The translations under genes were made by a program, and so were the position numbers. A stretch of DNA of 62,617 bases, filler included, from Dugesia japonica (taxonomy: Eukaryota): NCBI GenBank assembly GCA_001938525.1. It is 6 parts of 6 records of this genome, joined end to end, with 100 filler letters (N's around TTAATTAATTAA, not from the genome) between each part and the next. Parts side by side here need not be neighbours in the genome. Positions count along the whole stretch, not along the records: positions 47,442 to 62,617 come from MQRL01496623.1; 5 more parts are not named here. One strand, 5' to 3'. Numbering within the stretch: position 1 is the first letter of the stretch; every line of letters starts with the position of its first letter. Under the pieces are notes generated by a model. The model was given only the letters and a program-made list of their open reading frames with translations, was not told the DNA's origin and made no database searches. Below are positions 76-56,002 of this stretch, in pieces.

Positions 76-1231
76 GTAAACGTACAAAGAGGACTTTTGT
101 CCTTAACCCAAGGCTCTGGTTGGTTTTAAAAGCGCTTTTATTATTATTCTAAGAAAATAATAATGCCATTTGAAAACCTTTGATTTTTTTTGAAAAATTA
201 AAATTAATGTTTTATCTGAAAATATTTAAAAGATTTAATATAATAATATAATAATAAAATAATATAAAACTTTTAAAATAAAATTAAAAAGTAAAAAATA
301 ATATAATTAATAAAAGCTAAAGTATAAAAAATTAATTTGAAATGAATAAATATATTCAAAGTTAAATTATAAAGAATAAAACTATTAAATTGTGAAATAA
401 TGAAATTTATTTGAAAGTAAAAAATATATTTAAAATATGATTTTTAAATTTTTTAAATTAAAATATTTTCAATGTTAGCCGAATCTTAAAGTGTTTAGCT
501 AATTTAATTTTCTTGAAGAAAGAAATGCAAATCTTTATATTTGCTTTTTTAATAAATATTTCATGGATACTGCATTCTTGAATTCAATAGTATAATAAAG
601 TCAATAATAATTTGTATAAGTGTATTGGAATTAACAAATTAATATAATAATTATAAAGACCATTACTAAATTATGATGCAAGACAATTTACTCGCAATAT
701 TGTGTATACCGAAACAATTCAGAAAATTGTATGAATATTAAATTTTACTCTTTAATTCAAACCAAAAAAATTTGCAAAATATTTACTCTAATAATTCTCA
801 TTTTCAACTTGAAATATGGAAATAAAAAAATCACGGATGCCTCAGAATAAACTAGTAAAATAATCAATAATATAAAATTTATTTATATCCATCTACAATA
901 TTTTTGGCAAATTTTTAATATATGTAAGAATTCCTCATGATAAATAAACAAAAGAGTAAATATTTCACTTTAATTAACTTTTATTTTAATTATTTTAAAT
1001 GGTTCTCATTAATAGAAATTCGAAAGTTCCAAAAATTAAAACAAAAACATAATCGAAACCAAAAATTTGTATGAGGTTATTTATTTATATTTTTAGTTGC
1101 TTAATTTGGTGGTATATTTTATATATCTTCCACTTGACATTTTCTAATATGTTAGGTGTTTCCCCACTAATACCATAATTTATAATTAAGTTCTATTTCA
1201 TTCATTGAATTGAAATCTGATTTTGGTTTAG

Positions 1232-4200
1232 AATCTCAATAGCAATAATCCTCCACGTCTCAGTTCGAGCAGTAGTTCCGGTGTATGGAGTCAAATGGCA
1301 AACAATAATTCAGAAATTAGAATGATTCCCAGTGATGCTGTGATTCTGTTATATAGGCTAGGTGAAGGAGAATTCGGAGAAGTCTATCGAGGTAGACTGC
1401 ATTTAGATAATGGACAAATAGAAGAAGTTGCAGTTAAAGTAATTATTAAATGAATTTGTAATTATTGATATTTTATGCAAGTTGTTGAGATTGATTAACT
1501 CATTTTTGGCATTGTTTCTAATATTAAAAATATAAATTGATAATACAAAATTTCGAATCAAAATAATTCTGTTTAATATTTTGCTAATCGATTAATAATA
1601 AGAAGAATCCACACCCAATATTTTAAGAGATTTTTTAAAGTTAGAAAAAAGTTAATCTGTAAAAATAAAGTATTAAAAAAATGATATTTTAAAGTTTCTT
1701 AAATTTGGAATTGAAGCATTTTCTGTTTTTGTTTCTAATTTTAAAATGGAAATTATATTTTTATATATCGGTTTTTCACAAAATTTGTACCTTCGAATTA
1801 TTAGGTTGAACAGAAAGTTCTTGCCGATTTTTAAGCAAAAATGAAAACAAATATTTATATTTAGTCCAAAATATAATTTCTATTCAATTCTATAACTTGC
1901 CTCCATTTTCCTGGTAAATGATCTATATCTCTAGCAAAAATGTGCTCGCGTTTAGAGTCAAAGAAAGCCAGAAGAACCAATTTAACATCACTGGAATCAA
2001 CGAATGAACTCTGTTCCAAATAATTTTGTAAAGATCGAAATGGGAAGTAGTCCAATGGAGAAATATCAGGCGAATATGAGAGTGATTAATAACTTTCCGA
2101 TTCAGTTCATTTATCTTCCTCTGTGTTTTGATTGTATTACGTAACTTAGCATTGTCATGGTGAAGAAGACCCTTTCTGTTGGCAAAAATCAAATATGTAT
2201 TACGTAATTCAACTGCTAAATGAGCCAATTGATCACAGTACACATCTGTTATAATTGTTTCTCCAGGTGGCAATAACTGAATATGTATGAGTCCTTTTCG
2301 ATTTTACCAAAGTGCGTAAATGCGTATCCAGCTTTAATGTGTTGGTAAAATAATACATGTGATATTATTGTATTAAATTCATTTTCACCTCTGGTTATTT
2401 GTCCTACCCATAAAATGGCTCGTTTTCATTTCATAAAAGTAGTTAAGAACAAACAGAAATTCAATTTAATTTGTTATTTTCTGTCTGTTCATGATGTTGA
2501 TAAAATGTTGATAAATGTGATTTGTAATGGTTTTTAGTGAAAACTGAAGTCTCTTCGTTATTTTCCTGATAGTTGAAAATGGATTTGCGGCTAATTCAGA
2601 CTTAAGGATGGCGTTATCAGCATCAGAAGGCCTATCCTAACATGATATATGACATATCTTCATACCTAAAATCTCTATTTTGTAATTTTCGGAAACCAAA
2701 TCAAACTGTTCTTTTTATACTGCTTCCTTCCCAAATACTTATAGTTACTTCACGTGAATTTTACTCTTCTGGAACTCATACAGCATTCAATGCCCCCCAT
2801 ACATGTTGCTTATTATAATTTATTTGTGCCGCCCTGTTTCTATAAACACTTCTTATAAATGATATTATCATTTACGCTTTCTTCAACATTGGATTTCATA
2901 ATAATAAGAATTCAAAAGTAACACGCTTAGTAAAGATATCATAAAATTAAAATAAGTGAGTTTACTATTTAATTTAATTAATAATACACCATAACTTTAT
3001 CAATTCAAAGCTTATATGTGAGTCTAAATAGTAAGAATATATAAGTTAATCGCGATGTGTTTTATTGATGCTTAAAAGTAATACGAAAAATATGCAAGAA
3101 CATTCTGTTCAACATGATAATTGTTATATAGTGTGTTAGTTGGGTTTTGAAAACTCATCGAATAATTAACATCAGAATTCAAATTCATTGCAACGATTTA
3201 TTAATATAAAAAACTATAATTTCAATTTATTTGTTAAAATTTAATTTCAGAATTTAAAACAATTACTTATTCGTCATTTATGTTTTCATTTCAATTTAAA
3301 TCTTTTTAAAAAAAGATTTCAAGAAAAACGATCACCAACCACACAAAAATTTCAACTCGCTTAAAACATACTCATATAGTGCAACGTATCTATATATGTT
3401 CAGTTAATTCTGTTCTAAATGGAGTATGTGATCAATTTAATGTTTTAAAATAATCTTTTTTTAAATCAAACACATTTGTTATCATTAAATAAAGTGATTT
3501 TTAACTTAATTAGTTTCCTTTTAAAGTTTTCTAAGCTGTTACTTTACTTTTCACGTAATTGTTGAAATAAAATTATTTTTTTGATTAATATTGTATTATT
3601 GCTAATATTAGTTAATTTTTAAAGCCAAACAGCGTATTTTATTATTGAATTACATTATTGGATTTAAGGTTACAATAAAATATCTGATTCAAATGTAAGA
3701 TATGCTATTTTAGATAGTAGCAATCCAAACAGGAAATTGTTAATCGATGTTATTAATTATCAATTATAAATATCTGTTCAGGTCAATTCAGGCTAATGTT
3801 AAATGGTATGCTGCGTTAAATAATCGTAAAATTTTCATTCACATTCTTCTTTATTTACTTGTTAAATCAGTAACATTTGATACCTAGAAGCTTTAAAATA
3901 GAAATCTGTTTGTTGTTTAGCGTTTAAAATTTAATGTTATTTCTGGGAAACATTGACTGATACAAAATATAATATTACACGAATGTTTTTTTCCTTAACA
4001 ATTAATTAATCATTGTTTAATAATAATGATGCATTGCGAATTTTCGATTCATTGTATTCATGATTTATTAAATTTAATTATTTCAGTAAATTTATTGATT
4101 TAAAATTAACACTTAATTTTAGAATCTGATCTTAATCATTTGATTTGACTAATATTGGAATTTAGCTAAATATTGAAATTTATGTATTTATGATAATTAT

Positions 4201-7200
4201 TTTATGTAAATTGAATTCATGCCAATGTTAAATTGAATATATTAAGATTTTCTTTATTTCAAAACTTATGTAGAAACGCAAAAAAGATAAAAATTTTATT
4301 TTCATAAAATATTTATTTTAATAAAGATTTATACAATTACAATTAATGCGAAAATAATTGAAGGACTTAACCATTGATCGAATATGATATTTCATTAATC
4401 AACATGTTTTAATATTTCTTTAGTTGTTAGTATTTTGAATTTTTGACTTTTGTCTTCTGGGATTTAAATATAGTATAACGTGAATATATTACTTTTTAAA
4501 TTTCGGTATATAGTTAATATACAATTATATAATTACGAAGTTTTATTAAACAAAAAACATAACACTCAGGTCCTAGGCGATCTTACACTGACTCGTTTGG
4601 GGTAGTTGCTGTCTACAGATTAGAACGCAATCAACCAATTACAAACTTCATTGTTTTTCTATTTTCTTCTATTTATTTTCTGGATTCCCAATATTTCTCG
4701 TCTTTTTTCATGAGAACTCATCGCTGAAAATCCAAAATAATATTGCATGTTATCTACTTTGGTACACTTAAATCATATTATAACAATTTCCATATACCAA
4801 TACTCAGAGCTTCCAATGATAAAGATGTACAGCAAGTATTGCAATGTTGGACCTAAGGATTTTTCTGTTTCTCTCACAGTTTCATTATATTTTTCTTTAT
4901 TCTTGTGATCTGCACCTTCATAGCTTAAATTTGAATCGAATGGACTTTTTACATCAACAACAACATATTTCTATTTTTAGAATGTCCGGATACAGTTGAT
5001 GATCACAGAAAATTTGGATGCCTGCTCTTATAATTGTCATATCTTTATTTTTCTTAATTAAATTCTCAATATGCAATATCTTGTTATGTTTTGCGATAAC
5101 TAATTTCATAATTTTAGGACAGCAGCATGGGGCGCTGTTTCTTTTTCTCCTCCACAAGCACATTTCTGATTATACCTGAAACATTTTATGGCCAGACTCA
5201 CATTTTGTCTAATAACATCCTAACACGTTATCATGGGATCTGTACGTATTACGTTGTTCATCGATATAATTTTATTGATTAAAATGATGCCGCAACGTAT
5301 ACATAAAATGTGTCGAATATTTGTGGACGCTTGTAAAATGCGAGTTACCATGTCAATTTGCACGTTACGATATTTATAGTTGTACTTATTTGTCTTCAGA
5401 AATCGATTTCGGCTCAAGACATGTTCAGCGTTTTTCTTCAAACTGTTATGGAATAATTAAAACACTTACAGTAAACAATTATCAATTTTCAGAAAATATA
5501 AGAACCTTAATTTACGCTATTTATTTCGAATCAATCATGGTAATTATACTTACTCAATATATTTGATCTAAAGATAAATATCTAAATTTAATTTCAAATT
5601 TGGAATAGTATTTATTAAAATTTTCGTGATTAACGAATTGAAAAACTTTTAATTAGAATTTCTGTTGAATTCCTAATGATTAAGTATTTGATGCCTGCCA
5701 ATCTTATACTGTCAAACAGATCATAATGAAAGATTTAATTTTAAATCAATGATTTGTGGAACTCAGAATAAATCAGAATCGAAATTAAATTCTGAATTTA
5801 ATTATTTTGATACTTGTTTAAAAATAATTTGATTTGCATAAAATAAAATAATTTTGCAGTGATTTTATTAATCTTTTCATTTTCTAGTTTAAATTTAACA
5901 TCAATTCAAGTTTATATTTAATTCGAATATTGAATTTTAAAATTTTGTTTCCCCTTTTTTTGAATAAGAAAAATCTATATTTTTATGTTTTTTTCTTTTC
6001 ATCAATTTCGATTTTTAGTTATTGCCATCACATATTCAACTGAGTTTTTTGAAATTGCTAAATAATCCTTGAAATGAGTTTATCATCTTTAGAAAACTCT
6101 TTTCGTTTGAAAATGAAAAGATAAATATTTTTCTTGACTCGGTTTTGTTTTTTAAAATGTTTTTAAATCATGAATGTTGTCTAACCAAGATTATTTCATT
6201 GAGCTGAAAATTGTTAATGTCGAGATAGATATAGAGTAGTAATTTGTAAGAAATAAATTAGATAAAAACATATTAATTTATTTGAGCATGTTAGCAGAGT
6301 TGATTTCATTTTTGAAGTAAAAATACATTAAAAGAATATGATTATCAAATGATATTCTTTTAATTGGTATCTATCCAGCACTTCAAATATCTAATCGGGT
6401 TTCAGATTTTATTATATGGAATTATTATGTTCTTACTATAGCAAACTTTAATAGAAAGTGTTTTTGTAAAATTTATTCAGTATTAAATGTATTTCCAATA
6501 TGTTTAGGTTTTGTACTTCTACTCTGAAGCATAAATAAATATTTGAAATACCATTTCCTACTTATTTCTTGAAAAAATATGGATTATTATTATTGTCTTT
6601 TGTAACTTCAAATATAGTAAATGACGCTTGGATAATAATAAATGAAAATGTTAGTGAATATATTTTAAGAGAAATCATTGCTTTTTAAAATCACATAAGT
6701 ACGAATTGACTAAATAATAACAGACCCATTTTTATGAAAACATTTAATACCATTATCTATGATAGGGGCATTCAACTTTTACGGGTTATTAGAAATGCAC
6801 AAAATAATAATGACGTTGAGGTAACTACTGGATGGCAGAATTGCTAGGCTTAAGGAAATGTTTTAAATTTAGCAAAGCTATTTCATTAAATGTTTATAAC
6901 ATAATATTTGGGTTTTTATGTTTGTATTATCAGTTAATTCTGTTATGTTTAAATATCATGTTATTTGAATATATTTCATACAAACAAAGTTTTGTTTTAT
7001 AAACCTGGAATTTTGTACAGAAATATTATTTAAACAATTTTTAAAAGATTTGTAGTTAAGTTAGATTTCTTGATTTTAAAAGAATATTATTGTAAGATTG
7101 AAGTACTTTTCATTTTAGGTATTAGTTCAACCATCTCAGAGATTAGATTTTATGAAAGAAGCTAGTATTATGATGCAATTATCTCATCCGAATATTATTA

Positions 7201-7877
7201 CAATGTATGGTGTTTGTGAAAACAAGAGGCTTATGATGATCTTGGAAGTTGCTAATTTGGGATCACTGTTAGATTATTTGTTAGATTATCCTGAGAAAAT
7301 TCAGTTGAGTGATCTTCATAACTGGGCAATGCAAGTAAGTAATTTATTGTTTTATATTCAGTTCAATATCTTTGTAAAGATTGCTAGTGGGATGACATAT
7401 TTGGAAAGCAAAGGTTTTGTTCATCGTGATTTGGCTTGCAGAAATGTTCTTTTATCAAGTGAAAATTGTTGCAAAATCAGTGATTTTGGACTTTCTAGAG
7501 CAGTGGGGGTAGAGAGTGATTATTACAAAGCCACACGGCGCGGTAAATGGCCGGTGAAATGGTATGCACCTGAATCCATTTATTACAAAACCTTCAGTCA
7601 TGCCAGTGATGTTTGGAGCTATGGAGTTTGTCTTTGGGAAATGTGGAGTTTAGGGGAACATCCATATGCACAACAAGATAGCTTCGAAGTTCTTAGACAA
7701 ATCGAAGAAGGCGTCAGGCTTCCAAGACCGAAATTAACATCAGATAAAGTTTATATGCTTATGCAGCAATGTTGGGCCTATCGACCTGAAGATCGACCTA
7801 CCTTTTCTCACTTACTTGCTGTATTTTCTCATTTATGTACTAATATTTATGAAAACGTTGATCCTCCCGATCATTAG
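1232..7877 (+). CDS. Non-receptor tyrosine kinase, Shark/HTK16/Syk-ZAP70 family (3' part; exons 1232-1438, 7119-7334, 7380-7877)
   Basis: Exon 1232-1438 encodes LGEGEFGEVYRG...VAVK. GT at 1439 and AG at 7117-7118 join in phase 0 to VLVQPSQRLDFMKEAS. A 45-bp GT-AG intron lies at 7335-7379. Motifs HRDLACRN, DFG, YYKATRRGKWPVKWYAPES and SDVWSYGV are typical of Shark/Syk. SH2/ankyrin exons were not seen in the window. Confidence 0.9.
1801..3117 (-). mobile_element. Full-length degenerate mariner element (~1.3 kb) in the kinase intron
   Basis: TIRs ttaggttgaacagaaagttcttgc / gcaagaacattctgttcaacatga with TA flanks; broken transposase with HHDNAK, SPDISPLDY and LPGKW motifs. Confidence 0.92.
4640..5250 (-). 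mobile_element. 3' fragment of an RLE-type non-LTR retrotransposon (R2/R4/NeSL-like)
   Basis: Minus-strand frames give CACGGEKETAPH..CP (CCHC knuckle remnant), KHNK, YPDI..VVVDVKSPFD, KNKEKY and IIGS, the restriction-like endonuclease signature; frameshifted. Confidence 0.75.
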
Positions 7878-8003
7878 TTGTTTTTGTGCAATTTTATTAG
7901 CAGATACGTGACAATTTTTTCAATATATATTCATTTTGACTGAACCCAGTTGTACCGAACTGTATTTGTTTTAATTTTAAACGTAATTGTATTCTATTTT
8001 ATC

Positions 8004-8009
8004 AATAAA
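8004..8009 (+). promoter_or_regulatory. Probable polyadenylation signal of the kinase gene
   Basis: AATAAA about 130 nt after the stop, followed by a T/GT-rich tract. Confidence 0.5.
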
Positions 8010-8120
8010 TCTCGATTTCTTATTCATTGTTGCTTTTCTTATTTATTGTTTTCGTTTAGCTTTACGAAGGTTGCACAAGTTTGTTTATTCTTTATTCTAG
8101 GTTGTTAGTTCTTTATTCGA

Positions 8121-8220
8121 NNNNNNNNNNNNNNNNNNNNNNNNNNNNNNNNNNNNNNNNNNNNTTAATTAATTAANNNNNNNNNNNNNNNNNNNNNNNN
8201 NNNNNNNNNNNNNNNNNNNN
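8121..8220. other. Artificial 100-bp spacer (44N-TTAATTAATTAA-44N)
   Basis: Six-frame stop linker centred in an N run; five identical copies in the window. Confidence 0.95.
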
Positions 8221-8915
8221 GAAGTTTTTTATTCATTATTTCTTTAGCGTTTAAAGTTATTTAGAATCTAAGAAAGAACTCTTTGAAAGACTTTTTGAAT
8301 TACAAAAATATAGATAACAAAAAGAACGATCTAACAAAATTGATTAGCTTACCAGACGATTTAAAAAGAAGAATTACATCTGAGCAACTTGATATATAAT
8401 GGTCTTTCTAAACCATCACTTTCAAGTATTGACAACCAAGGATCAATAGAAACTGAAAGAGTGAGTGAAGATGAGGATACAACTAATATATCAATAGATG
8501 AGGATAATGGATTGCTAGGTTTGCATGGGAAATAGCACTAGTAATATTATATATGATTGTGGGCATTAAAATGTATGAAGATGCATAAAATCAAAAGCAG
8601 ATAGCATGTAAACAACATGCCTTCTACATATTGATATCCGATATTGAAATGAATATAATCTACTAATATGTATGTGATCCAATAATATAAATATAAATAA
8701 CTTATTATTTGAATAATGAATTTTTTTCTGAACATTTAAATAATTATGAAACAATAACTTGTAAAAGATGTAAAAGATGTAATTAATGATAATTGATAAA
8801 CAAAACAATTCAATAAAATGGAATAGCAAATACTATAGTGCAAGCCGAGAAAACAATTTCTCATATGAAAACTAAATAAAATTTCAAATGAAAATTGTTT
8901 AACACATCTGAAGAA

Positions 8916-9379
8916 CCCTTTCACTCCCGGCGAGAGCATTTTTGAATTTTTGGCTTCAAATAATAGATTAAGTTTACGTAACAAAGTTTTGAACCAAAAT
9001 TAAAATTTTTTTCATAAAATTGGCGCCAATTTACAGAATAATTTCGAATTTTGGAATATTACATTTCATTCTTAACATATAAAATTCATTAGAAAATCAA
9101 ACATAAATTATGTTAATTTTTCACAATTTGCCCACATAATTGTTCGTTTTGGTTGTTACATTCTTTTAAAATTTTAAATCACTCATGGAAACACAAAGAT
9201 ATTCCATTCTATACTAAAACACTTATAACTTTTTGTGTGACCAATCTGGAATCAAAACAACTTATGCGTAAGATTGGCCTCATTAAACCCTTTAAAATGA
9301 TATGAAAATTACAACCTTCTCACTACTGTTTATCTGGATATTGAAGTGTATCCAATTGGATACGCTGGGAGCGAAAGGG
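8916..9379. mobile_element. piggyBac-type MITE
   Basis: TIRs ccctttcactcccggcg / cgctgggagcgaaaggg (2 mismatches); TTAA on the right, degenerate left target. Confidence 0.75.
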
Positions 9380-10438: not shown

Positions 10439-13400
10439 CTTGAAGATTCGTTGCGATCCAATGGCATAGTAAGTGATGTTTCTGAGCTGGTCTGGGCAAT
10501 CTTGATGTTTGACTGCTCCTAATCACTGTTATTTCCTATTTCTAACATCAATAAAAACAATCCTACTTTACATATATCTGATTTCAATTTATTACTTTGG
10601 ACTTGAATTTTCTGCAGTCCATTAGCAACATCTGAAATAGATTGTCGCAAAATCTGCGATTCTTCTTCTACTCGTGTAATCAAACTTACAACTTCATTTG
10701 ATTTTATTATATCTTCTCTCAATTTTTTTTGCTCGGTCACAAATTTCCTATAATCCATTTTTGCAGTTGATAAAATTACATCATTAAACCTACTTAAAAC
10801 TTTCCACAGTTTCCTTAAGTTCTGGTAAAAGATCTATATCTTTGACTTGCTTAACAACACTAAAGATGAGATATGAATTGATTTAAATCTTTAAAATTTC
10901 AATATTAAGTTGAATAAATGAACAAAAATCGCGAATTATTATTTAGAATATTCGATAATATTTTTACAATACGATTTTTGGTGTAATTTACACACGTTAC
11001 GTTTCTTATTGTTTTAATATTAATAAATTAATATTAATCATCTATGACTGTGTTTCTCAACCAAAAACGCACCGCGGATTAGTAAACTACATCAAATTTA
11101 TATTGCTGACCATCGGCTGTGAAACAGTGCTCTATAGTATTGTTTCTCAACCAAAAAAAGATCCGCTGATCTGTAAACTGTACAACTTTCTAACGCGTAC
11201 TACTAATGATGATTATACCTAGTGTTGTTATAATACATTTTAGCTACAAATACGTTATTTACGAAAGCGAATTTATGTGCATCATTGGGATACAGGAACT
11301 GAACCTTCTTCCCCATAGAAGAATTTGATAATTCAAAGCATCTAGCATAGAATTTACAATTTAGTAAGCATTATTTAGTTAATACAATTTGTTTTAGCAA
11401 CATGTACGGAAAGTTCTGATTGTGCTACTAACAATTTATTTATTTATTTGTAAAAAGTACATAAAATATCAAGTATTTACAACAAAAACCACTACAAAAA
11501 CACAATAATATTTAAATAATTAATGCAACAACTTCCTTAGTTAAACTTTTTGTTTGCTATCAAAAGAATAATTAAATATTTTTCGGGGACGATTAATTTT
11601 TTTTTACGGATTACCGCTTGAGAAACACTGCTCTATGACATTACTTTGTTACATTAAAAGTAAAATAATTTACACTCAAACCTTTTTTTTTGTAGTCTTT
11701 TTTTGCGATTTTAAATTAATATATAAATAAAATGTTTAAATGTATAAATTCAATGTTATTTTAAGCAGTTTGATAAATATTTAGTCGTAAATAAATGGCA
11801 ATTATCATTATAATATTTAATAAACATGTATTGGTTTAGATTTACATTAGGAAATATGGTGATTTTTAGCAAAAATATCACTAGGAAACCTATAAAAAAA
11901 TATTACTTTAAAGGCACAAGGGTTAAATCACCGAATAAATTCAATACGATAAATATAATTGGCTTTATGACTTTGTAATCAATCAATTTCATAGTTAAAT
12001 TACAAAAAATATAAACATGTTAATTTCCAAAAATAATGCACTTCAGTTAATTTTATTCATTTTAATCTTTACTTAGATATTTACAACTTTATTTAACAGA
12101 TTAGTATACATCTAGGTCTCTTTTTATGCGGTATATACGTTCCATTGAAAACCACATTTAACTTAGGATTCGAAAATCACATAAAACAAAGCAGCAATCA
12201 AATTTCTCAGTCGTACAAGTTCTAACGGTTTTTAACTCATTACTCCTCGTCCTTTTTTGTGATGTTACATTTCTTATTGTTTTATTTTTTATAAATTTTG
12301 CTAGTTTTAAATTCAATTTATATATAATATTGTTAAATAGATTCCATTGTTCATGTTTGAATCAACAAACATTGTTTAATTTTATTTAATTGTTGTCAGC
12401 ATATCCTGAAATTTGTAAAATTTTTATTCCTGCGTTTTGCAGCATTTAAAAACAACTTTTAGGCTTGCGGCAACAATGGCATTTATATTATTGCTAGATA
12501 TGTATTGGTATATAATCTGTTGATGTTCTCATAAGTGTTTGAATTTTGAATTGTATAGTTAAGTATAATATTACGTACTTATAAGCGTTCCAGTAATAGG
12601 ACATTGACAGAATGTGATAGCAATTTTTCATATGTAATGTTTACCATATAATAGAATACATTATCAAGCCTCTTTCTTGCGCTGAAAGATATTCACAGCA
12701 GAAAAAGAAAGACAAATATAAATGCCAAAACTCGTTAAAGAATATACTACGCACATGGGAGGCAGATTTATTGGACAAGCAAGTCTCCCACGAAAAGAAT
12801 ACGCTTAAGATCTAAAAAATGGTGGTGGCCATTTTTCACACAAATTTTGAATGTTTATATAGTAAATACTTCGTGTGCGTACAAAATAGTTCATACACAT
12901 GAAAAGATATCACTTCTGGATGTTAAAGAAGAACAATCACCTACTTATCTAAAAAAACAGGATGCACAAAAAACGCCATGGACCTCAAGACAGTAGATTG
13001 TTGGATGGAAGAGTACCGAACGATGTAAGACTTGGTGAAGGATGTTCAAGAGTTTGTAGCAAATGAATTGTTGGACTTCGAATATAGNTGTTTTGTTACT
13101 TTTCACACACACTCAAGCGTATATAATATGACAGTGTTGAATTTAACAATTTTGAATATCACGAATTCTAAAATCAATATTTTAGATAGTGTATTATATT
13201 ATTATCGAATTAGTAGAGAACAGAACAGCTGCCACATTATTACCACATTATAAGGGCCACTGTTCGGAAGGGTTGAGTGATGAATGGAAAGCTTATATTA
13301 AATTAGCGAATGATAAAAATTACATTCATCTAACAGTTAACCACAAATTACTATTTATTGACAAAAATAGTGGTGCCAATACACAAAGAATAGAGTCGAT

Positions 13401-46518: not shown

Positions 46519-46747
46519 ATTCAAATTTTCAACACACTTGTCTTCTTTAAAAATGATGACTTTCTGATGGATTCAAATTGACTATCGATCATTGCTACAA
46601 ATTCTTAATCTTTTATTGACATTTTTTTAATAGACCAATAAAATCTCGATAAAAGATTAAGAATTTGTAGCAATGATCGATCGTCAATTTGAATCCATCA
46701 GAAAGTCATCATTCCTGAAGAAGACAAGAATTGTCGAAAATTTGAAT
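46519..46747. repeat. Long foldback palindrome (MITE-like)
   Basis: Core arms 46552-46616 / 46649-46713 (65 bp, one mismatch), extending outward imperfectly. Confidence 0.9.
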
Positions 46748-47341: not shown

Positions 47342-47441
47342 NNNNNNNNNNNNNNNNNNNNNNNNNNNNNNNNNNNNNNNNNNNNTTAATTAATTAANNN
47401 NNNNNNNNNNNNNNNNNNNNNNNNNNNNNNNNNNNNNNNNN
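47342..47441. other. Artificial 100-bp spacer
   Basis: 44N-TTAATTAATTAA-44N. Confidence 0.95.
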
Positions 47442-47691
47442 CCTTTGTCCAGAACAATTTATGGAGTGTACGAAACTCTCTTGCAGGGGCTAACGATGAA
47501 AATATAGCCGGTGGGGACTCTTGATTATCATGATGGTGAATTTGACTCTGAAAATATATTTGGTGTACGGGTTGTCTTTTCTCTGTTGATTTTCTGGTGG
47601 TGTTGAAATTTATGCTCCATTAAGAATGATTGTGTTTCTATAATAATTAATTAGCCTTCATTGATCAATGACTGATTTTGTCTTTTTCTAG

Positions 47692-48059
47692 TGCACTCAT
47701 CGTTAAATCGATCGGCCGCTCCAACCGAAAAACTTCGCGAGGACAGCAAAGAGAGGGAAATGACGTGGGACCTCTACCGCTTGGCTAAGCGTAGATGGGA
47801 GGCCGAAGTGGCTACAGCAAGCGCCAAAGTTAAGCGTTACCGGGCCAAATGCCGTAGCATCCGGGAGGAAATGGGCCTTGTTCAGGCGCAAGAACGAGTA
47901 TGGAAGGCCCAAGTCGAGTCCTTTTCTGAACTCATCCGGTCCGGCCATGACCGAGAAAATAAACTGGTTAATGACATCTTAGCTTTAAAAGCAAAGTCAT
48001 ACCTTGAGCCCCTTATGATTGATAAGGGTACTCAAACAAAGAACTCCGCCCCACCTTGA
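47692..48059 (+). CDS. Module 1: phase-1 terminal exon, coiled-coil protein with a C-terminal KGTQT motif
   Basis: tctttttctag acceptor; intact GC-rich frame; AATAAA at 48070. Confidence 0.6.
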
Positions 48060-48182
48060 ATTTTGATATAATAAAATTATTTTTCTGTGTATGTCTCTTG
48101 TATTGCTAAAATTTTGCCAGGTCGTATTTGGTGATGATAAGATATTTGGATTACACTTTTCATATATCGTTTGTAATTTCAG

Positions 48183-48565
48183 TGGTCCGAATTCAATTCC
48201 CTAATAGCCTAAGGCNNNNNNNNNNNNNNNNNCGCCGCCTCCTGGTAGAGCGTCATTTGAAGCGCAAAGCGGAACAGGCCTTGTTGAAACACCTGGATCA
48301 ACGAGATAGGTTAATTAAAAAGCTGTATCTCGTTGTCAAAAAACCGTCCGATTTAGCGGCCCAAACTAGGGCGTTAGAGACGGAGAACAAACTCCTGTTG
48401 CAACGCAAGGTCAATTTCCTCAAGCAGTACATCGCTGACTTGTCCCGCCAACTAGGCGATCCTAACATCTCTCAATGGGATGAAGATGACGACATTGCGG
48501 CTTTTAACTTTGTCGCCACTTCCCCAGACCAATGGTTAGATCCTGCCGCTTTGGATCTCATCTAA
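48183..48565 (+). CDS. Module 2: phase-1 terminal exon, basic/zipper-like coiled coil with an acidic-hydrophobic tail
   Basis: aatttcag acceptor; open frame across a short N run; paralogue at 49003; AATAAA at 48578. Confidence 0.65.
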
Positions 48566-48699
48566 ATGTTATTTGATAATAAATGCCTAATTAGTAGAAA
48601 TGCCTTAATTCGTTACTTAATAATAAATGTTTAATTAATAGAAATGATTTAAATATTACCGGGAAAATATAGAACCCGAACAAAAGGCTTATTGGTGAG

Positions 48700-48835
48700 C
48701 ACCTTCCATCAAGGGTAAGGTCAACCGCAATAATCCGAAAACCTATCATAGGGACGGTAGGGTTAAATTCTTGAAAGGGCTCCCCTGAGGACTGTTTTCC
48801 CCAGTCACTTTTTCTAACTCAGGTGNAGCCCCAAC
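48700..48835. other. Structured motif copy 1 (multi-stem)
   Basis: Stems gggct/agccc, cctga/tcagg, gactg/cagtc and cctatc/ggtagg; covaries with copy 2. Confidence 0.6.
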
Positions 48836-49002
48836 TAAAGCACCCAAACTAAACCGATATCAAATGGCTAGACTTTTTCTATATCTGTAAATAAATGATT
48901 AGTTAGTAAATCCTTACCTTTGTGCGTCTTATTTAGTTAGGGGAGTTTCGTTCTATATAAAATAAATTAATTATTTCTTTTCATTAATACTTCCTTATCA
49001 AG

Positions 49003-49385
49003 TGCCACGGATCACATTTCCGAACAGCTTAAGACGGTTTCACCGGATAATGCGTCGCCTACTCATCGAAAGACAGTTAAAACGTAAAACCGACCGAGCG
49101 TTATTAAAACACCTAGCCCAAAGGGACCAAATGATAAAGAAACTAGATTTGATAGTAAAAAAGTAAAACGATTAAGCCACGCAAACTAAGGCTCTAGAGA
49201 ATCAAACCCAACTGTTATTGCAAAGGAAAATNNNNNNNNNNNNNNNNNNNNNNGGGGATCTTTCTTGCCAGATTGGTAATCCCTCTTGGTTGCAGTAGAA
49301 CGATGATGATGATGTAGCCACCTTTAACCTTTTAACGATGGATCTAGGCCAGTGGCTAGACTCTAGTGCATTAGATCTCCTATAG
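49003..49385 (+). pseudogene. Module 3: decayed paralogue of module 2
   Basis: AG|TG phase 1; PRITFPNSLR...RRLLIERQLKRK...LLKHL...QWLDSSALDLL with one frameshift and internal stops; AATAAA at 49397. Confidence 0.85.
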
Positions 49386-49489
49386 TTTTCATATGAAATA
49401 AATTTTTTCGTGTTCAAATTATTGTAGTATCAATAAAGTAATGACGATAGAGAAAATCGCGAACCCAAATTTAAAGGTATATGGGCGCG

Positions 49490-49632
49490 TACCTCTCATT
49501 AACCTAGAGGTCAACCACCACATGCCGAATGCCTAACTTAGGGACGTTAGGTTAAATTCTTGAAGGGGTCTCCTGAAGGCTGTTTTTCCCCAGCCACGTT
49601 TTTTTTGACCGAACTCAGGTAAAACCCCAACA
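49490..49632. other. Structured motif copy 2, ending in the LTR-like terminus GGTAAAACCCCAACA
   Basis: Stems ggggt/acccc, cctga/tcagg, ggctg/cagcc, cctaac/gttagg and acctct/agaggt. Confidence 0.6.
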
Positions 49633-49694
49633 CAAAAAGACTTTTTCTATCTAAATCTTTAAACGTGATTTCTTGTTTAATGTCAATTTCTAAG

Positions 49695-49969
49695 GATGCT
49701 ACCTCACTGGTAGACCTAAAAAATGGTCCTCCTTGCAAGAGAAATTGCAGACATAAATCACAAAGCTACAACAAAGAAACACCAAACTCCAGAAACAGAA
49801 CGTCACATTGAAGAAACAAGACCTCGTCTTGTCATAGTCAAGCCATATAATGGCCAACATCATAAAGTCATATGCGGAACGAGTATCAGCACTAATGTCA
49901 ACTGTGCGTACCTTAGTCTAGTTCTCTTTAATCAAAGAAACGATCAAACCGAAGACAAGAATAAAATAA
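49695..49969 (+). pseudogene. Module 4: decayed phase-1 coiled-coil exon
   Basis: aatttctaag acceptor; frame CYLTGRPKKWSSLQEKLQT*ITKLQQRNTKLQKQNVTLKKQ... shows heptad leucines and 3 internal stops; AATAAA at 49960. Confidence 0.45.
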
Positions 49970-51074
49970 CAAAATATCGACGAACCATGAAAAATTTGTT
50001 TTATGTAAATAAGTCTTTAGTTATAAAGACATATTTATAAGCTTTTCAATCTTGAATGAATGAAAAATGGATAACCAGAGACAGTAAAAGGAAAAACAAC
50101 TGTAGCTCAAAAACTGAATTATGCAAGGACAGGACATTAGTCCGCATGGACAAAGGGTAGATGGAACAATGCACAAGTTCTGCCGGCGTTAGGATATCTA
50201 CTCCTAGAAGATTTCATGATAGAAACAGTGACAAAGAAGGAAAATCAAGAGAATGGTTCACGGATAAATAATAACATCATAAACTTCGAAGTCCAACAAA
50301 TGTTAAATTATCTTCTTTATCTTTTTAATATGTTACAAGATATTTTCATGTAAATTTTGAATGTAACTAATAACTGTTAAATAAATAAAAAATTAAAATA
50401 TATACGACCTTCTTATGAAATAAGGATTGTCAGTGGCCTTTAACAAAAAGCTTCCCAAACCTTGGCATGAACTAATTTATAGTTGACAGCAATCAAAATT
50501 GTAGATTAATTTTTTAATCTATTGTTACGGAAATTTAAGTAAACGAAACGCCATAATTTATCTCTAAAATATTATTTTAAGTTATAGTCAAACAGGCAAT
50601 CGAGTTGATTAAATAACAAAAATAAAATTCATTGAAATTATAAATTTTAAAAACATTAAATTACTTAATTTAAATGGCATAGCGTCAATTTTGTTTTAAT
50701 ATTTTAATTCAACCTTGTCAAATCAATTATTAATTTGTCATTTATTAGTTTTCAATTATCAACTTAGAAAGTTGTAAAAGAAATTTTCTATAAAAAATAT
50801 ATCGATATTGTTAATATTCAGCGAAATACTTATCTAAGTTATTTGGTATTATTAACATTGATTTGTGCCTAAAGTTATTTACAATAAATAAATTCAAAGC
50901 CATATCCTTAAGATAAGCAAATTCAATAGTTTTTTTAAAATTTAAACATATTTGAAAACAAATACAAATTACGATTAAACTAAGTTCAACCCTACAAAAT
51001 TTATTCAATAAAAATTAAGAATTTTTGATAAAATAATTTTATTAAACCTAAAAATAATTTCTGGTTATAAATCA

Positions 51075-51492: not shown

Positions 51493-51644
51493 TTCAAAAT
51501 AAATAATTAAAATGAATTACTAAAACAAAGAAATAACAATTTAAAATAAATCAACTTTTATGCTATCTTTCGGTAATTATTTTAACTTAATTGAATTAAT
51601 TAAAATATTGATAAGATAAGATATTAGTAATTTTGTATTGACTT

Positions 51645-52100
51645 GAACCACCTAAGTGTTTGAAACAACTTCTTGGATTTATAGGGCTTACAAATTATTA
51701 CAGAAAATTTAATAAAAATTATTCAAAACACTCGAGGATATTAGAAAGTTTATGTGGAAACCATAAAAATAAATTAATTTGGTCAGATCAATGTAAACAA
51801 AGTTTTGAAGCTTTAAAGCGAGAATTAATGAAGGCTCCTATTCTTATTTATCCAGATTTATCCAAAGAATTCATACTAGATACAGCTGCCACCTTTGAAA
51901 CAATTGGTAGAGTATTATCACAGTTAGATGAACAACGAAATAAATGCGTTATATCTTATGAAATAAAAGCAATTAGTAAGCATGAATTAAGTTATTGTAA
52001 AACCAGGAAAGAGCTTCTAGCAATATATTATTTTACGAAACATTATAAACACTATTTATACGGGAAAAGATTTAAGCTTCGAAATGATCACACGCCATAA
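51645..52100 (+). mobile_element. Ty3/gypsy pol fragment (RT thumb to RNase H)
   Basis: LGFIGLTNYYRKF, LIYPDLSKEFILDT, RKELLAI and YLYGKRFKLRNDH motifs. Confidence 0.92.
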
Positions 52101-52180
52101 CTTTTATTTTAAAATTACAATTATTGTGAGAATAATTGTTGGATTTAACAATTGATCGCATTTGAGATTTCATGAAAATC

Positions 52181-52312
52181 AGAAAAAGCTTCGATCAAAA
52201 TAAAATTTATTTGTAAAAAGGTTCAAATTTTCGAAAATAGTCTTCTTCAGGAACCATGTCGAAAATTTGAACCTTTTTACAAATAAATTTTATTTTGATC
52301 GAAGCTTTTTCT
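52181..52312. repeat. Perfect 54-bp-arm palindrome, same family as 46519-46747
   Basis: Arms 52181-52234 / 52259-52312 are exact reverse complements around a 24-nt spacer. Confidence 0.95.
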
Positions 52313-52865
52313 TATTTTACAAAACTTTTATGTTTAATACAAAATAACCGATTACTACACAATTCGAAAAATGGATCAATCATCTAAGTAGTTTGGATAT
52401 GATTTTGGAATACAAAAACCTGAATGTCATTTAAATTCTGACGCAATGTCAGTAAATAGATAGTAGAGCACGGGCACAATTTACACTCCCCTCTACCCTG
52501 GGAGACTCGAAAACTGCATACTATTGTGCTAGTATTTTTAAGTTAGATTTTTTTCCTAAGATTTTTGGGATCAAAATGGTTTTGATCAGAATATTTTTTT
52601 ATCTGGATCAGATTTTTTTGATTCTGTGAGTGTGTGTGTATTTTCCATTTTTAAAATTTGTGTATGTTTGGGAGGTTGTGTGGGTTAATTTAAAGTAAGT
52701 CAAATTGAGGTGGTGTGTGTGGGAGTGAAATTGGACGTGAGGGAGGTGTGCAGATCTTGGAAATAATTTGTTTGTGGGTTTTATGATATAGGTGTTAGGA
52801 CTAAAATTCTTTCTATACATTGTCTAAAGGACTTATGTGGTAGAATTGATGGTTCGCCATAGAAG

Positions 52866-54483
52866 TGTTGGGGTTTTACCCTAGATGGATTTATTCCTTA
52901 TATGATTAAATCTAGGGGGGTCGAACTTTATGTGAAATTAAGTCTAGGGTAATTGACCCTGTAAAACCCCGTGATGAATTTGAATCTGGTGTCCCCCCAA
53001 AAAATATCCAGATCTTTGGGATGAAGCCGTTGACTCGTAGCTCGAGTAAAGACTCGCACCCCTTTGGTTCGGATTCATATTTCGTAGTGCTCGCTAAATT
53101 TTGATAACTACTTAGTTGATTTTAGTTACTGGTGTCAGTTTAATAAAGGAATAAAATAAAACCATATTAAATGAAAGGAAAATCCGGTTGTGAAAAGTTA
53201 TATTATTATTTATTTCACTCATTACATTAGAATTACATAAATAAAAATAAGCTAACATAGACTGCAAACTCGATCCGGAGCAAGCACATCGGGGTGAGTT
53301 CATTTGCTACTTCTTCTACCCATTTTTGTAGATCCTTCCGAGTCAGAAATCGTTGCAATCCAAACTTTATATGGTTAAATATTTACCGTGGATATTCTCG
53401 ATTTTCCGGTAATTTTCCAATAATAACGATTGAATAATATTGCTTTTTTCTTCGAGATTGAGTGGGAATTTTCACTTAAGAATTATTTTAATGGTTATCG
53501 TTGTCTAAAATTCGAACGGTATTTATACTGTTTCTCTTTACACCCTCATTCAATTCATTGGTGGATATAAATTCTTGGCGTTTTTATTGGCCAGATGGTC
53601 ACATGCTTTCTTTTCATTGGCGGTTATTTGTGGACTTCAAAACTATTGGTCAACCTTCAGACCCTTATAACTTTTTTCCCTTCCTTGCCATGATTTTCTA
53701 TGTTTAATTTTTAAATTTGCCGAATTTTTCTCGACCAGAATTTTTTAGATTGATAATTTTGGCACCACTAGAAGTCCTAATTTTCTTAGTTTTTGGTAGA
53801 AAATTTAATTTTAGATTTAAAATAAATCGTTTTAATTCTTATGATTTATTTTATTTAAATAAAATAAATTATTTATTTTATTTTCGTTGTGCATCTTAAT
53901 TAAGTGCTCATTTCTTTGGTCTTTCTGATTTATTTAATTTAGTTTCATTGTTTTTCTTCTATTAATTAATTAATTTAGTTAATTTTTTCTTTCTTCCAGT
54001 ATAATTCAATGTGATTTTCTTTATTTTGTCTAATGAATTGATGGTTAATCATTAATTTTTTGTCGTCCTTGTACAGCTTCTATTACTTTTTCCTCTTTTG
54101 TTTACTTATTTCTTGCTGTGATTTCGGCTATTTCGTTGGTTTTGGTTACCAATCTAGATTTTTCTTTTCATTATTTCTTTCTTTTCAATTAATGAATCAG
54201 TTCCTTGGCCATCGTTTATTATTTTCGTGGTTCGGATTACCGCTTCTGTACTTTGTTGGCTTTTTTATTTCCTCGTTATCTTCTGCTGTAGTTCTAGTTC
54301 TTTCATCCTTCACACGAGTTTTGGCCTTCTAGTTCCATTATGGCTTTCGTCATTCTTCTCTCTGATTAGATTATGCCCTTCTTGGGTCCGAATTCTTCAT
54401 TTTCTTTTCTTATGTAAATTTCTTTGAATTTCATGTTTACTTACACCATTTTATTTGCTTTAATCCGGTATTTCACCCCAACA
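52866..54483 (-). mobile_element. Solo LTR (1618 bp)
   Basis: TGTTGGGGT...ACCCCAACA termini; flanks gaag/gaat (4-bp TSD with one mismatch); interrupts otherwise colinear homology with 32550-32600; internal CCAAT/TATA promoter. Confidence 0.75.
53520..53649 (-). promoter_or_regulatory. LTR promoter: four CCAAT boxes plus TATAAATA
   Basis: Plus-strand ATTGG at 53557, 53586, 53616 and 53645; TATTTATA at 53520-53527. Confidence 0.7.
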
Positions 54484-55319
54484 GAATTTTGGTAGCGAAC
54501 GGGCACATGATTATAAGTTCTCGTGGATTGGCTTTTGGGATAGTGTAGATTTGTTGGTGGTTGTTGGATTTTGTGTTTGGTGGNNNNNNNNNNNNNNNNN
54601 NNNNNNNNNNNNNNNNNNNNNNNNNNNNNNNNNNNNNNNNNNNNNNNNNNNNNNNNNNNNTTGATTGATTGATTTGTAAGTAGTATAAAGATATTAAAAC
54701 ATTTTTTGGAGGGGAAAGGCATAATGTGTAAAGGTAATTAATTATTGGATTTTATAAGATTTAATTGAAATTTTTCTCTTAGGTGGTTGTGGCGTAATAT
54801 TTTTTTGAAAAGTTAATTTTAAATAAAATGATTCATTTTGCTTAAAATAATGTATTTTAATAAAAATACTGAATTAATTGAAAATATTGGTTTATGTAAA
54901 AATATGTGTATTTTATTGAGTAGACTTCAAATTTATGTATGGGATGTGGTAGGCCTTATATTTTTTAGTAGATTGTGCTTGAATTTTTTTCCCCGGTTGT
55001 AACTCAATTTATTTTTTTAAGGTTTATAGGGGTAATCAGAGTTTTGATCGGATCATTTTTTTAGTTCGGGATCATAAATTTTTGATCTGGAGATGTGGGT
55101 GAGGCGATTTTCTTTTTTTAAAATTTGTGTGTGTTTAGAAAGTGAAGGTGGTTAATTCGAAGTAGGTTAGGTGAAATTGGTGTGCGTTTATGCAAATGTG
55201 CAAGTGCACTTGATTGTACTGTGCAGTTATTGATTTGCATTTTTAATGGTTTTATGATATTGGTGTGTAAGGACTAAAATTCTGTCTATACATTGTCTAA
55301 AGAACTTATGTGGTAAGAT

Positions 55320-56002
55320 ATATTGGAATTATCATTCTGAAAAAATGAATTCAATTATGAAATCAAAATTTATGACCAATGGATTAACTGGACATAATTT
55401 GTCAATTTCTTATTTTTGTTTATCATTTCTTATATCCTATAAGTGCTGATGCCAAATTTTTGATTTTCTATTGGTGCATATTTTTGGAGCACATTGTGAT
55501 TCTTGTTTCTTTATTTCACGTTTCTTTTCTGGCTTCTGATTGGTCCATTCTTCAAAACCTTTTATAGACCATCCTGATAATGGTAAGGTATTCTTGTTGA
55601 AAATTTACTATGCCCTGTAACATTTCTTCTTCAAATTTCCTTACTAGGGTCTTTTGTGATCTTCCAGAGTGAAGATATTCTATAAAAACTGATTTTCTCT
55701 TAATTTTAATTCTTTTCTGCAATAAATTAATTAATTTTTCATGATAAATTTTTTTATTATATTTTATTAATATTTTCTAATTTCAGGTAATAAATTATAA
55801 TTTCCTCAACTTTAATTATTCGCGACTGGCTTATTATAATATTCTTCTTTCATAATTTCTCCCGGATCCTTTTCTAAATATTGATCTGTAAATTATTGAT
55901 AAATTGGTGATTGTTGTTAATCTTTCAAGTTCCGTTTCTTCTTGGCACTAATTCCGGACCCCTGGAGATATTATCCTTATTATCGGATGTTTCACCCCAA
56001 CA
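55320..56002 (-). mobile_element. 5' fragment of a related LTR
   Basis: Begins TGTTGGGGTGAAA on the minus strand, like the solo-LTR end at 54483; the other boundary is unclear. Confidence 0.55.

Follow-up and report, generated by a model that had tools for sequence, protein, structure and literature searches.

In the planarian Dugesia japonica (assembly GCA_001938525.1), positions 47442–49632 of a 62,617-nt stretch of DNA, hereafter called the window and numbered along its whole length, hold a row of short coding modules that belongs to a dispersed, high-copy repeat family. With moderate confidence, this row is taken to be the 3′ long terminal repeat (LTR) part of a gypsy-type element related to Burro and GLT, carrying three accessory genes that would be alternatively spliced and separately polyadenylated. 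The features observed directly are the repeat status, the constraint on modules 2 and 3, the starts at AG-TG, the AATAAA signals after the stops, and a terminus and a block held in common with a second insertion, element B. The contig bearing the array begins at 47442, 250 nt 5′ of module 1, and contains the following features.

47442–47691, plus strand: repeat 5′ of module 1, of high depth, ending in a T/C-rich tract and TAG, a putative acceptor
47692–48059, plus strand: module 1, TAG-TG start, intact phase-1 frame of 122 codons, AATAAA at 48070
48183–48565, plus strand: module 2, CAG-TG start, phase 1, 127 codons (17 N within), AATAAA at 48578
48650–48836, plus strand: conserved block copy 1, non-coding, with donor-like CAG-GT at 48822/48823 and terminus-like CCCCAAC
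49003–49385, plus strand: module 3, AAG-TG start, 127 codons, decayed paralogue of module 2, AATAAA at 49397
49445–49632, plus strand: conserved block copy 2, with donor-like CAG-GT at 49618/49619, ending in terminus GGTAAAACCCCAACA
49695–49969, plus strand: module 4, AAG-GA start, decayed coiled-coil-like frame with three internal stops, AATAAA at 49960

The four modules are co-oriented, and each opens in phase 1 directly behind an AG (47692, 48183, 49003 and 49695), as an earlier sequence-only reading of the window had stated. Of the two compositional biases which it also claimed, the richness in GC holds (0.51, 0.48, 0.42 and 0.39 in modules 1, 2, 3 and 4, respectively, vs. 0.27 in the window and 0.18–0.28 in the spacers), whereas CpG is not enriched (observed/expected ratio 0.95–0.99 vs. 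0.99 in the window, module 4 being lower). GC content at third codon positions (GC3) is 0.44–0.56 in the modules, with 0.48 in module 4, vs. 0.19–0.29 in three host genes. The pyrimidine tract thought to precede each AG is clear in module 1 (pyrimidine fraction 0.82), but less so in modules 2, 3 and 4 (0.65, 0.71 and 0.65). TG directly follows the AG in modules 1, 2 and 3 and in element B, representing three independent cases, against a window background of 241 in 5114 AGs (4.7%). Modules 3 and 4 begin after AAG; a host kinase gene in the window has a 45-nt in-frame GT..AAG intron (at 7335), and AAG is therefore compatible with an acceptor role in these modules.

An ATG is lacking at the 5′ boundaries, as had been noted, but only at the boundaries themselves. 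In-frame ATGs are present at codon 24 of module 1 (47760) and codon 17 of module 3 (49050), and module 2, whose unmasked frame contains none, has an open in-frame ATG 49 nt 5′ of its AG (48134). Likewise, the poly(A) signals described for all modules lie 10, 12 and 11 nt past the stops of modules 1, 2 and 3, respectively, whereas that of module 4 (49960) sits 5′ of its final stop; in the background, AATAAA occurs within 25 nt past a stop triplet in 757 of 9057 cases (8.4%). A shared phase and one poly(A) signal per exon are thus found in modules 1–3, and loosely in module 4.

Modules 2 and 3 are paralogues and protein-coding sequences under selection, in agreement with the sequence-only reading. 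They align without gaps across 128 codons, and their mismatches number 37, 21 and 77 at the first, second and third codon positions (114 unmasked codons; p 1.4e-8). The proportion of differing synonymous sites (pS) is 0.99 and that of replacement sites (pN) is 0.215; that is, synonymous sites are saturated and replacement sites are conserved. In the other five frames, pN/pS ranges from 0.38 (the mirrored frame) to 2.7, and none matches the phase-1 frame. Conservation starts at the AG (RIxFPNSLR), and over the 62 nt 5′ of it the alignment is at chance level (265/1000 shuffles). Modules 1–3 are genuine, and modules 2 and 3 are under protein-coding constraint; for module 1, coding capacity is indicated by the intact 122-codon frame, its GC3 and its relatives in RNA, rather than by a ratio of replacement to synonymous substitution (dN/dS). 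No kinship is detectable among module 1, modules 2/3, module 4 and the element B frame, the best pair being modules 1 and 4 (19/500 shuffles).

The decay ascribed to modules 3 and 4 is evident. Module 3 has stops at codons 55, 58 and 99, and all three stops as well as the base at −3 of its AG differ in nearly all of the depth contributed by other copies (among 40 of the 221 variant sites listed). As other copies differ at these stops, the decay is private to this copy. Three internal stops interrupt module 4, whose connection with the element is uncertain: its GC3 is element-like, yet it is single-copy. The proposed four-member array stands for modules 1–3 and is weaker for module 4, which starts with AAG-GA, is unrelated to modules 2 and 3 and resembles module 1 weakly at most.

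Sequencing depth supports the repeat status. Four of the 24 listed sequencing runs (DNA, X1; RNA, X21 and X22; and X9) were aligned to 47442–50400. The summed word depth in X1 is not a copy number, and only the contrast with the reference level at 49719–50114 is used. Relative to this level, depth is about 50 to 25,000-fold across 47442–49619 and about 1-fold across the module 4 stretch. Module 1 reaches about 600–25,000, module 2 800–9,000, the first block 18,500–20,300, the spacer and module 3 50–300, and the second block 2,200. Clearly, modules 1–3 are part of a dispersed high-copy family and module 4 lies outside that family. This depth, together with a terminus and a block which recur in element B, bears out the suggestion that a large mobile element carries the modules.

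The conserved block, which the sequence-only reading passed over along with the TG behind the AGs and the contig joint at 47342–47441, is about 185 nt long and occurs 3′ of both module 2 and module 3. Its two copies are 72% identical, far better kept than the synonymous sites of the modules, and both close with donor-like CAG-GT and CCCCAAC, the terminus reading ...CCCCAACA. Block copy 1 ranks among the deepest parts of the repeat, and relatives of the block are present in oligo-dT RNA. A search of Rfam with the block gave nothing at E ≤ 1; the fold of copy 2 has a z of −2.05, and a consensus fold from two sequences is too thin to count. A 5-bp hairpin in the block seems by eye to covary, which is a lead only. 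The 15-mer at 49618–49632 recurs once, reversed, at 52866–52880 (chance 0.08), where it bounds element B; a further terminus belongs to element C.

52866–54483, minus strand: element B, a 1618-nt TG...CA insertion with the shared terminus and a homologous 3′ block
55990–56002, minus strand: element C, terminus TTTCACCCCAAC followed by A, of the type of the other end of element B (TGTTGGGGTGAAA-type)

Element B interrupts a repeat that runs unbroken near 32520–32660. Its frame starts with AAG-TG and runs in phase 1 from 53474 to 53233 on the minus strand (80 codons with one stop), followed by AATAAA 18 nt past the stop. Its 3′ block is homologous to both array blocks, also when the terminus is excluded (0–2/500 shuffles). 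TG...CA ends with a short inverted repeat are found in element B, whereas the array shows only the matching 3′ terminus at 49618–49632. Element B is likely a solo LTR. By eye, no TGG stands straight after 49632; the minus strand has a purine-rich 12-mer at a distance of 8 nt from the terminus. A primer-binding site (PBS) is not expected in a solo or 3′ LTR. Element C (about 55320–56002) is A-rich on the minus strand and apparently truncated on its left side.

RNA reads matching the array are partial throughout: 2 in X21 and 91 in X22 (oligo-dT), of which 88 of the 91 are less than 95% alike. They fall mainly on the C-terminal half of module 1 and on the conserved block, and both read directions are present; by eye, loose read ends at module 1 continue the frame with the sequence of a diverged relative. 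Relatives of both module 1 and the block are transcribed, and this copy barely so; as a genomic copy, it has decayed and is almost silent. At the acceptors, none of the joints listed for X9 and X1 contigs is of the GT..AG type. The splice search rested on 18 of 540 loose ends listed, on a copy nearly without reads of its own and on no host-gene control; splicing at the AGs is neither shown nor excluded by the RNA reads.

These observations can be assembled into the following scheme. The element promoter would drive a transcript with a short leader exon. From its donor, this leader would be spliced to one acceptor out of several, and the mRNA would end at the poly(A) site that follows the frame so selected. 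The last base of the leader and the invariant TG would then make up the first codon (A-UG, or the near-cognate G-UG). A start codon completed by splicing is favored because TG is invariant after the AG, which is the main hint. The products may be small helical regulators: a bZIP-like protein with an acidic tail from modules 2/3, possibly a transactivator, and, from module 1, a long coiled coil that may bear an LC8 site. The array probably grew by tandem duplication of a unit comprising acceptor, open reading frame (ORF), poly(A) signal and terminal block. The mutually exclusive 3′ exons on one shared leader, which the sequence-only reading had envisaged, are plausible in this framework.

Several points weigh against this interpretation. 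For the element bearing the array, whose contig starts at 47442, neither a leader nor a PBS, gag, pol or second LTR was seen. No spliced read or GT..AG joint was found at the four AGs in X21, X22 and X9, of which about 6% of X21 and about 25% of X22 were read. The two visible donors end in G, and the frame upstream of them has a stop and no ATG, so that the codon formed would be GUG instead of AUG. Unspliced expression is permitted by TATA-like boxes, which precede the AG by about 50 nt in modules 1 and 3 and element B, and by the ATGs. The flanks of element B, GAAG and GAAT, make a target-site duplication with 1 mismatch in 4. Similarity between the blocks extends about 30 nt beyond the supposed terminus (4/1000 shuffles), which is unexplained by a plain LTR end. 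Finally, the likeness to the planarian element GLT2, described below, is one of architecture only, judged by eye and without alignment.

Unspliced expression is the basis of the alternative that survives best, which we nonetheless hold to be fairly unlikely: the same element would carry mini-genes with TATA/initiator promoters of their own, translated from GUG at the apparent acceptor or from a nearby AUG. Module 3 has TATATAAA at −49 with TTCA 29 nt later, element B has TATAAATA at −53 and module 1 has TATAATA at −53; GTG is in frame in all four (modules 1–3 and element B), ATGs are available in frame at 47760, 48134 and 49050, and the RNA reads contain no splice joint. However, each GTG has a pyrimidine at −3, a poor context for a non-AUG start, and in this copy a TATA is absent from module 2. 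The upstream ATG of module 2 is absent from module 3, whose upstream frame has a closing stop, and YAG is present before TG although such mini-genes need none.

Given the donor-like CAG-GT inside the array, leaders might be local rather than shared. Each block would then be the promoter and leader exon of the next module, resulting in a chain of two-exon genes. The CAG-GT at the two block ends would give introns of 180 nt (to module 3) and 76 nt (to module 4), lengths that suit the host in view of the 45-nt kinase intron; the similarity of the blocks past the donor and the block relatives in oligo-dT RNA also fit. Yet modules 1 and 2 have no block 5′ of them, and in element B the block follows the ORF and is itself followed by nothing. 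Moreover, the donor-like letters belong to the terminal inverted repeat, which accounts for their conservation, and a junction into module 4 would yield GGA. We regard this chain as unlikely.

It is rather improbable that the carrier is instead a Ginger-like or Polinton-like DNA element or integrated DNA virus bounded by terminal inverted repeats. The termini are short inverted repeats (TGTTGGGGT), and no reverse transcriptase (RT), integrase or PBS was seen. Pieces that look Polinton-like by a motif lie nearby (34272–35150). But the inverted repeat of element B is perfect over just 9 nt, TG...CA ends and a poly(A) signal close to the 3′ end suit an LTR, and element B is inserted into a Polinton-like repeat rather than being part of that repeat. 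In addition, gypsy elements account for more than 90% of the LTR elements of Dugesia and Schmidtea (10.64898/2025.12.11.693146).

Flatworm spliced leaders (SLs) end in an AUG able to initiate translation (PMC12582326), and acceptors without a visible donor would suit an outron. The acceptors could thus take an SL whose terminal AUG is the start codon. The SL AUG, however, reads in phase 0, which is closed after 4, 9 and 9 codons in modules 1, 2 and 3, respectively, whereas the conserved frame is in phase 1. As a start codon it is excluded by this wrong phase unless there is an SL variant whose end is shifted by one base, and this origin of the mRNAs is very improbable. An ordinary host gene with alternative last exons would have the same anatomy of acceptor, frame and poly(A) signal, but is hardly credible given the high-copy depth, the non-host GC3, the termini common with insertion B and the lack of any host exon upstream within the contig; the repeat status refutes it, barring host mRNAs that are spliced to this copy.

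The products of the putatively LTR-borne modules would have helical folds. The AlphaFold model of module 1 is one helix at residues 10–108 with a mean predicted local distance difference test score (pLDDT) of 86; the model of module 2 has helices and an acidic tail (pLDDT 67) and its coiled-coil character is less clear, so that the coiled coil claimed for the modules is apparent chiefly in module 1. The C-terminal DKGTQT of module 1 is similar to an LC8-binding motif, a lead only. Module 2 is laid out as a basic region, a zipper-like helix and an acidic W/F/L tail, and its comparison with the C/EBP-beta bZIP gives a non-significant E of 1.9–6.2, again a lead only. Membership of modules 2/3 in the bZIP family is not supported: there is no Pfam bZIP match and no significant profile or structure match, and the likeness is one of layout only.

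Searches for homologues gave little. Pfam returned sub-threshold matches only, mostly to coiled coils, and Foldseek with the module 2 model found no match at E ≤ 0.001 in a viral set and the PDB. Modules 1 and 2 have no homologue in a set of 5.8 billion proteins (near lengths only) or in viral contigs, and metagenome contigs contain no relative of module 1 or of one block motif. Two long TPR-repeat proteins, retrieved with a profile of modules 2 and 3 from 1.84 billion representatives, were rejected, as their score was a sum of weak stretches. ESM Atlas gave leads to two unnamed clusters (0.80 and 0.91), with low recognition. These blanks likely reflect absent planarian data, because a search with the window kinase found no triclad-labelled protein among its best 120. 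On present sequence comparisons, the three small protein-coding genes, one of which is now broken, would appear to belong to no known family.

As to the setting, the window consists of six contigs joined by five N44-TTAATTAATTAA-N44 segments at 8121, 16691, 26508, 35905 and 47342; neighborhood across the joints is uncertain. The last joint immediately precedes the array.

47342–47441, no strand: assembly joint (N44-TTAATTAATTAA-N44), where the element is cut; leader, promoter and 5′ terminus are outside view

Other parts of the window include host genes and diverse mobile elements. The kinase gene is represented by the 3′ exons of a Shark/HTK16 tyrosine kinase (7119–7877, plus strand), the product of which is 78–81% identical to fluke and tapeworm HTK16/Shark, 65% identical to that of Macrostomum and 54–64% identical to orthologues of other animals. 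A frame at 10519–15780 (minus strand) is that of an FG-nucleoporin (Nup58-like), with a weak Nucleoporin_FG2 match, and a coiled-coil frame of 1005 codons at 22547–25564 (minus strand), with no Pfam match, presumably resembles CSPP1. Fragments of mariner-like transposases lie at 1926–2303 (minus strand) and 18430–18840 (plus strand). A family like miniature inverted-repeat transposable elements has near-perfect long inverted repeats at 46537–46728 (92-nt arms) and 52175–52318 (60-nt arms). A Polinton/Maverick-like remnant spans 32104–35900 with a direct repeat at 32105–32370 and 35559–35829; its frame at 34644–35150, which has no significant Pfam match, looks PolB-associated by its motif, and related pieces lie at 52450–52860, 54490–55315 and 56635. 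A gypsy RT/RNase H fragment at 51642–52097 (plus strand) shows no link to the element bearing the array.

Several known systems resemble the array in part. In complex retroviruses, small regulatory ORFs located within the LTR or close to it are expressed through alternative splicing (nef, sag, foamy tas/bet and HTLV HBZ). They share one poly(A) site, and we know of none with tandem poly(A) signals for each ORF. HBZ or Tas would have a counterpart in a bZIP-like or acidic transactivator, although no similarity in sequence or fold was found with module 2.

In springer-subclade gypsy elements, the AUG of env is completed at the splice junction (AU-G; bioRxiv 10.1101/2023.08.03.551782). As in such insect errantiviruses, the accessory ORFs of the planarian array would be reached by splicing with a start completed at the junction. 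Errantiviruses have one env ORF, located inside the element, and a shared 3′ end (bioRxiv 10.1101/2023.08.03.551782), whereas the array consists of several short frames, each with a poly(A) signal, and shows an N-UG split and no likeness to env. Cestode ta-TRIMs and solo LTRs provide a precedent in which flatworm LTR donors splice to downstream acceptors; unlike the array, ta-TRIMs are short and non-coding, and the acceptors are in host genes (PMC4558846).

Closer relatives may be found among planarian elements. Burro/GYPSM1 carries accessory domains (MATH, BIR, BCL2 and ankyrin) in a polyprotein of about 4,900 aa or in an upstream ORF (PMC6431247). Like the array, it likely belongs to the same host group and has thousands of copies, accessory ORFs outside gag-pol and long LTRs; unlike Burro/GYPSM1 as described there, the array is a row of frames of about 120 codons, each with an acceptor and a poly(A) signal, beside the terminus. 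The GLT2 probe (PMC8532177 Table S1), viewed by eye on its reverse strand, has an AT-rich tract, TTAG, TG and about 79 open phase-1 codons, resembling the array in its TAG-TG, its GC-rich phase-1 frame and its coiled-coil-like end. This suggests that the AG-TG phase-1 design is common to planarian elements. Four short block and terminus motifs have no match in the first 400 characters of the cells in the GLT and GLT2 rows of the same table. An architecture like that of the array was not found described in the literature searched; the likeliest sources lie outside that search, and novelty is provisional.

From its sequence, the array would be an accessory-gene variant of an LTR-type element, of which the single leader and the splice-made start codon are the putative part. 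More tentatively, it is possible that this family, element B and GLT2 form a planarian LTR clade in which small regulatory genes are kept at the end of the LTR as an array open to expansion. An A-ending leader would be joined to any one of several YAG-TG acceptors so that AUG arises only after splicing, each gene would have its own poly(A) signal in an adenovirus-late-unit-like organization, and every solo LTR would retain the array.

Planarian giant LTR elements are abundant, are targets of piRNAs (PIWI-interacting RNAs) and are expressed in a tissue-specific manner (PMC8532177), and Burro1 is reported to support stem cells via a captured anti-apoptotic gene (as cited in PMC13465017). With a high-copy array for selected, lineage-specific small proteins at their LTR end, such elements would possess a second class of regulators of their own. 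If their start codon is made by splicing, the array would be invisible to ATG-based annotation, and, if the organization proposed here is true, the array would spread via solo LTRs.

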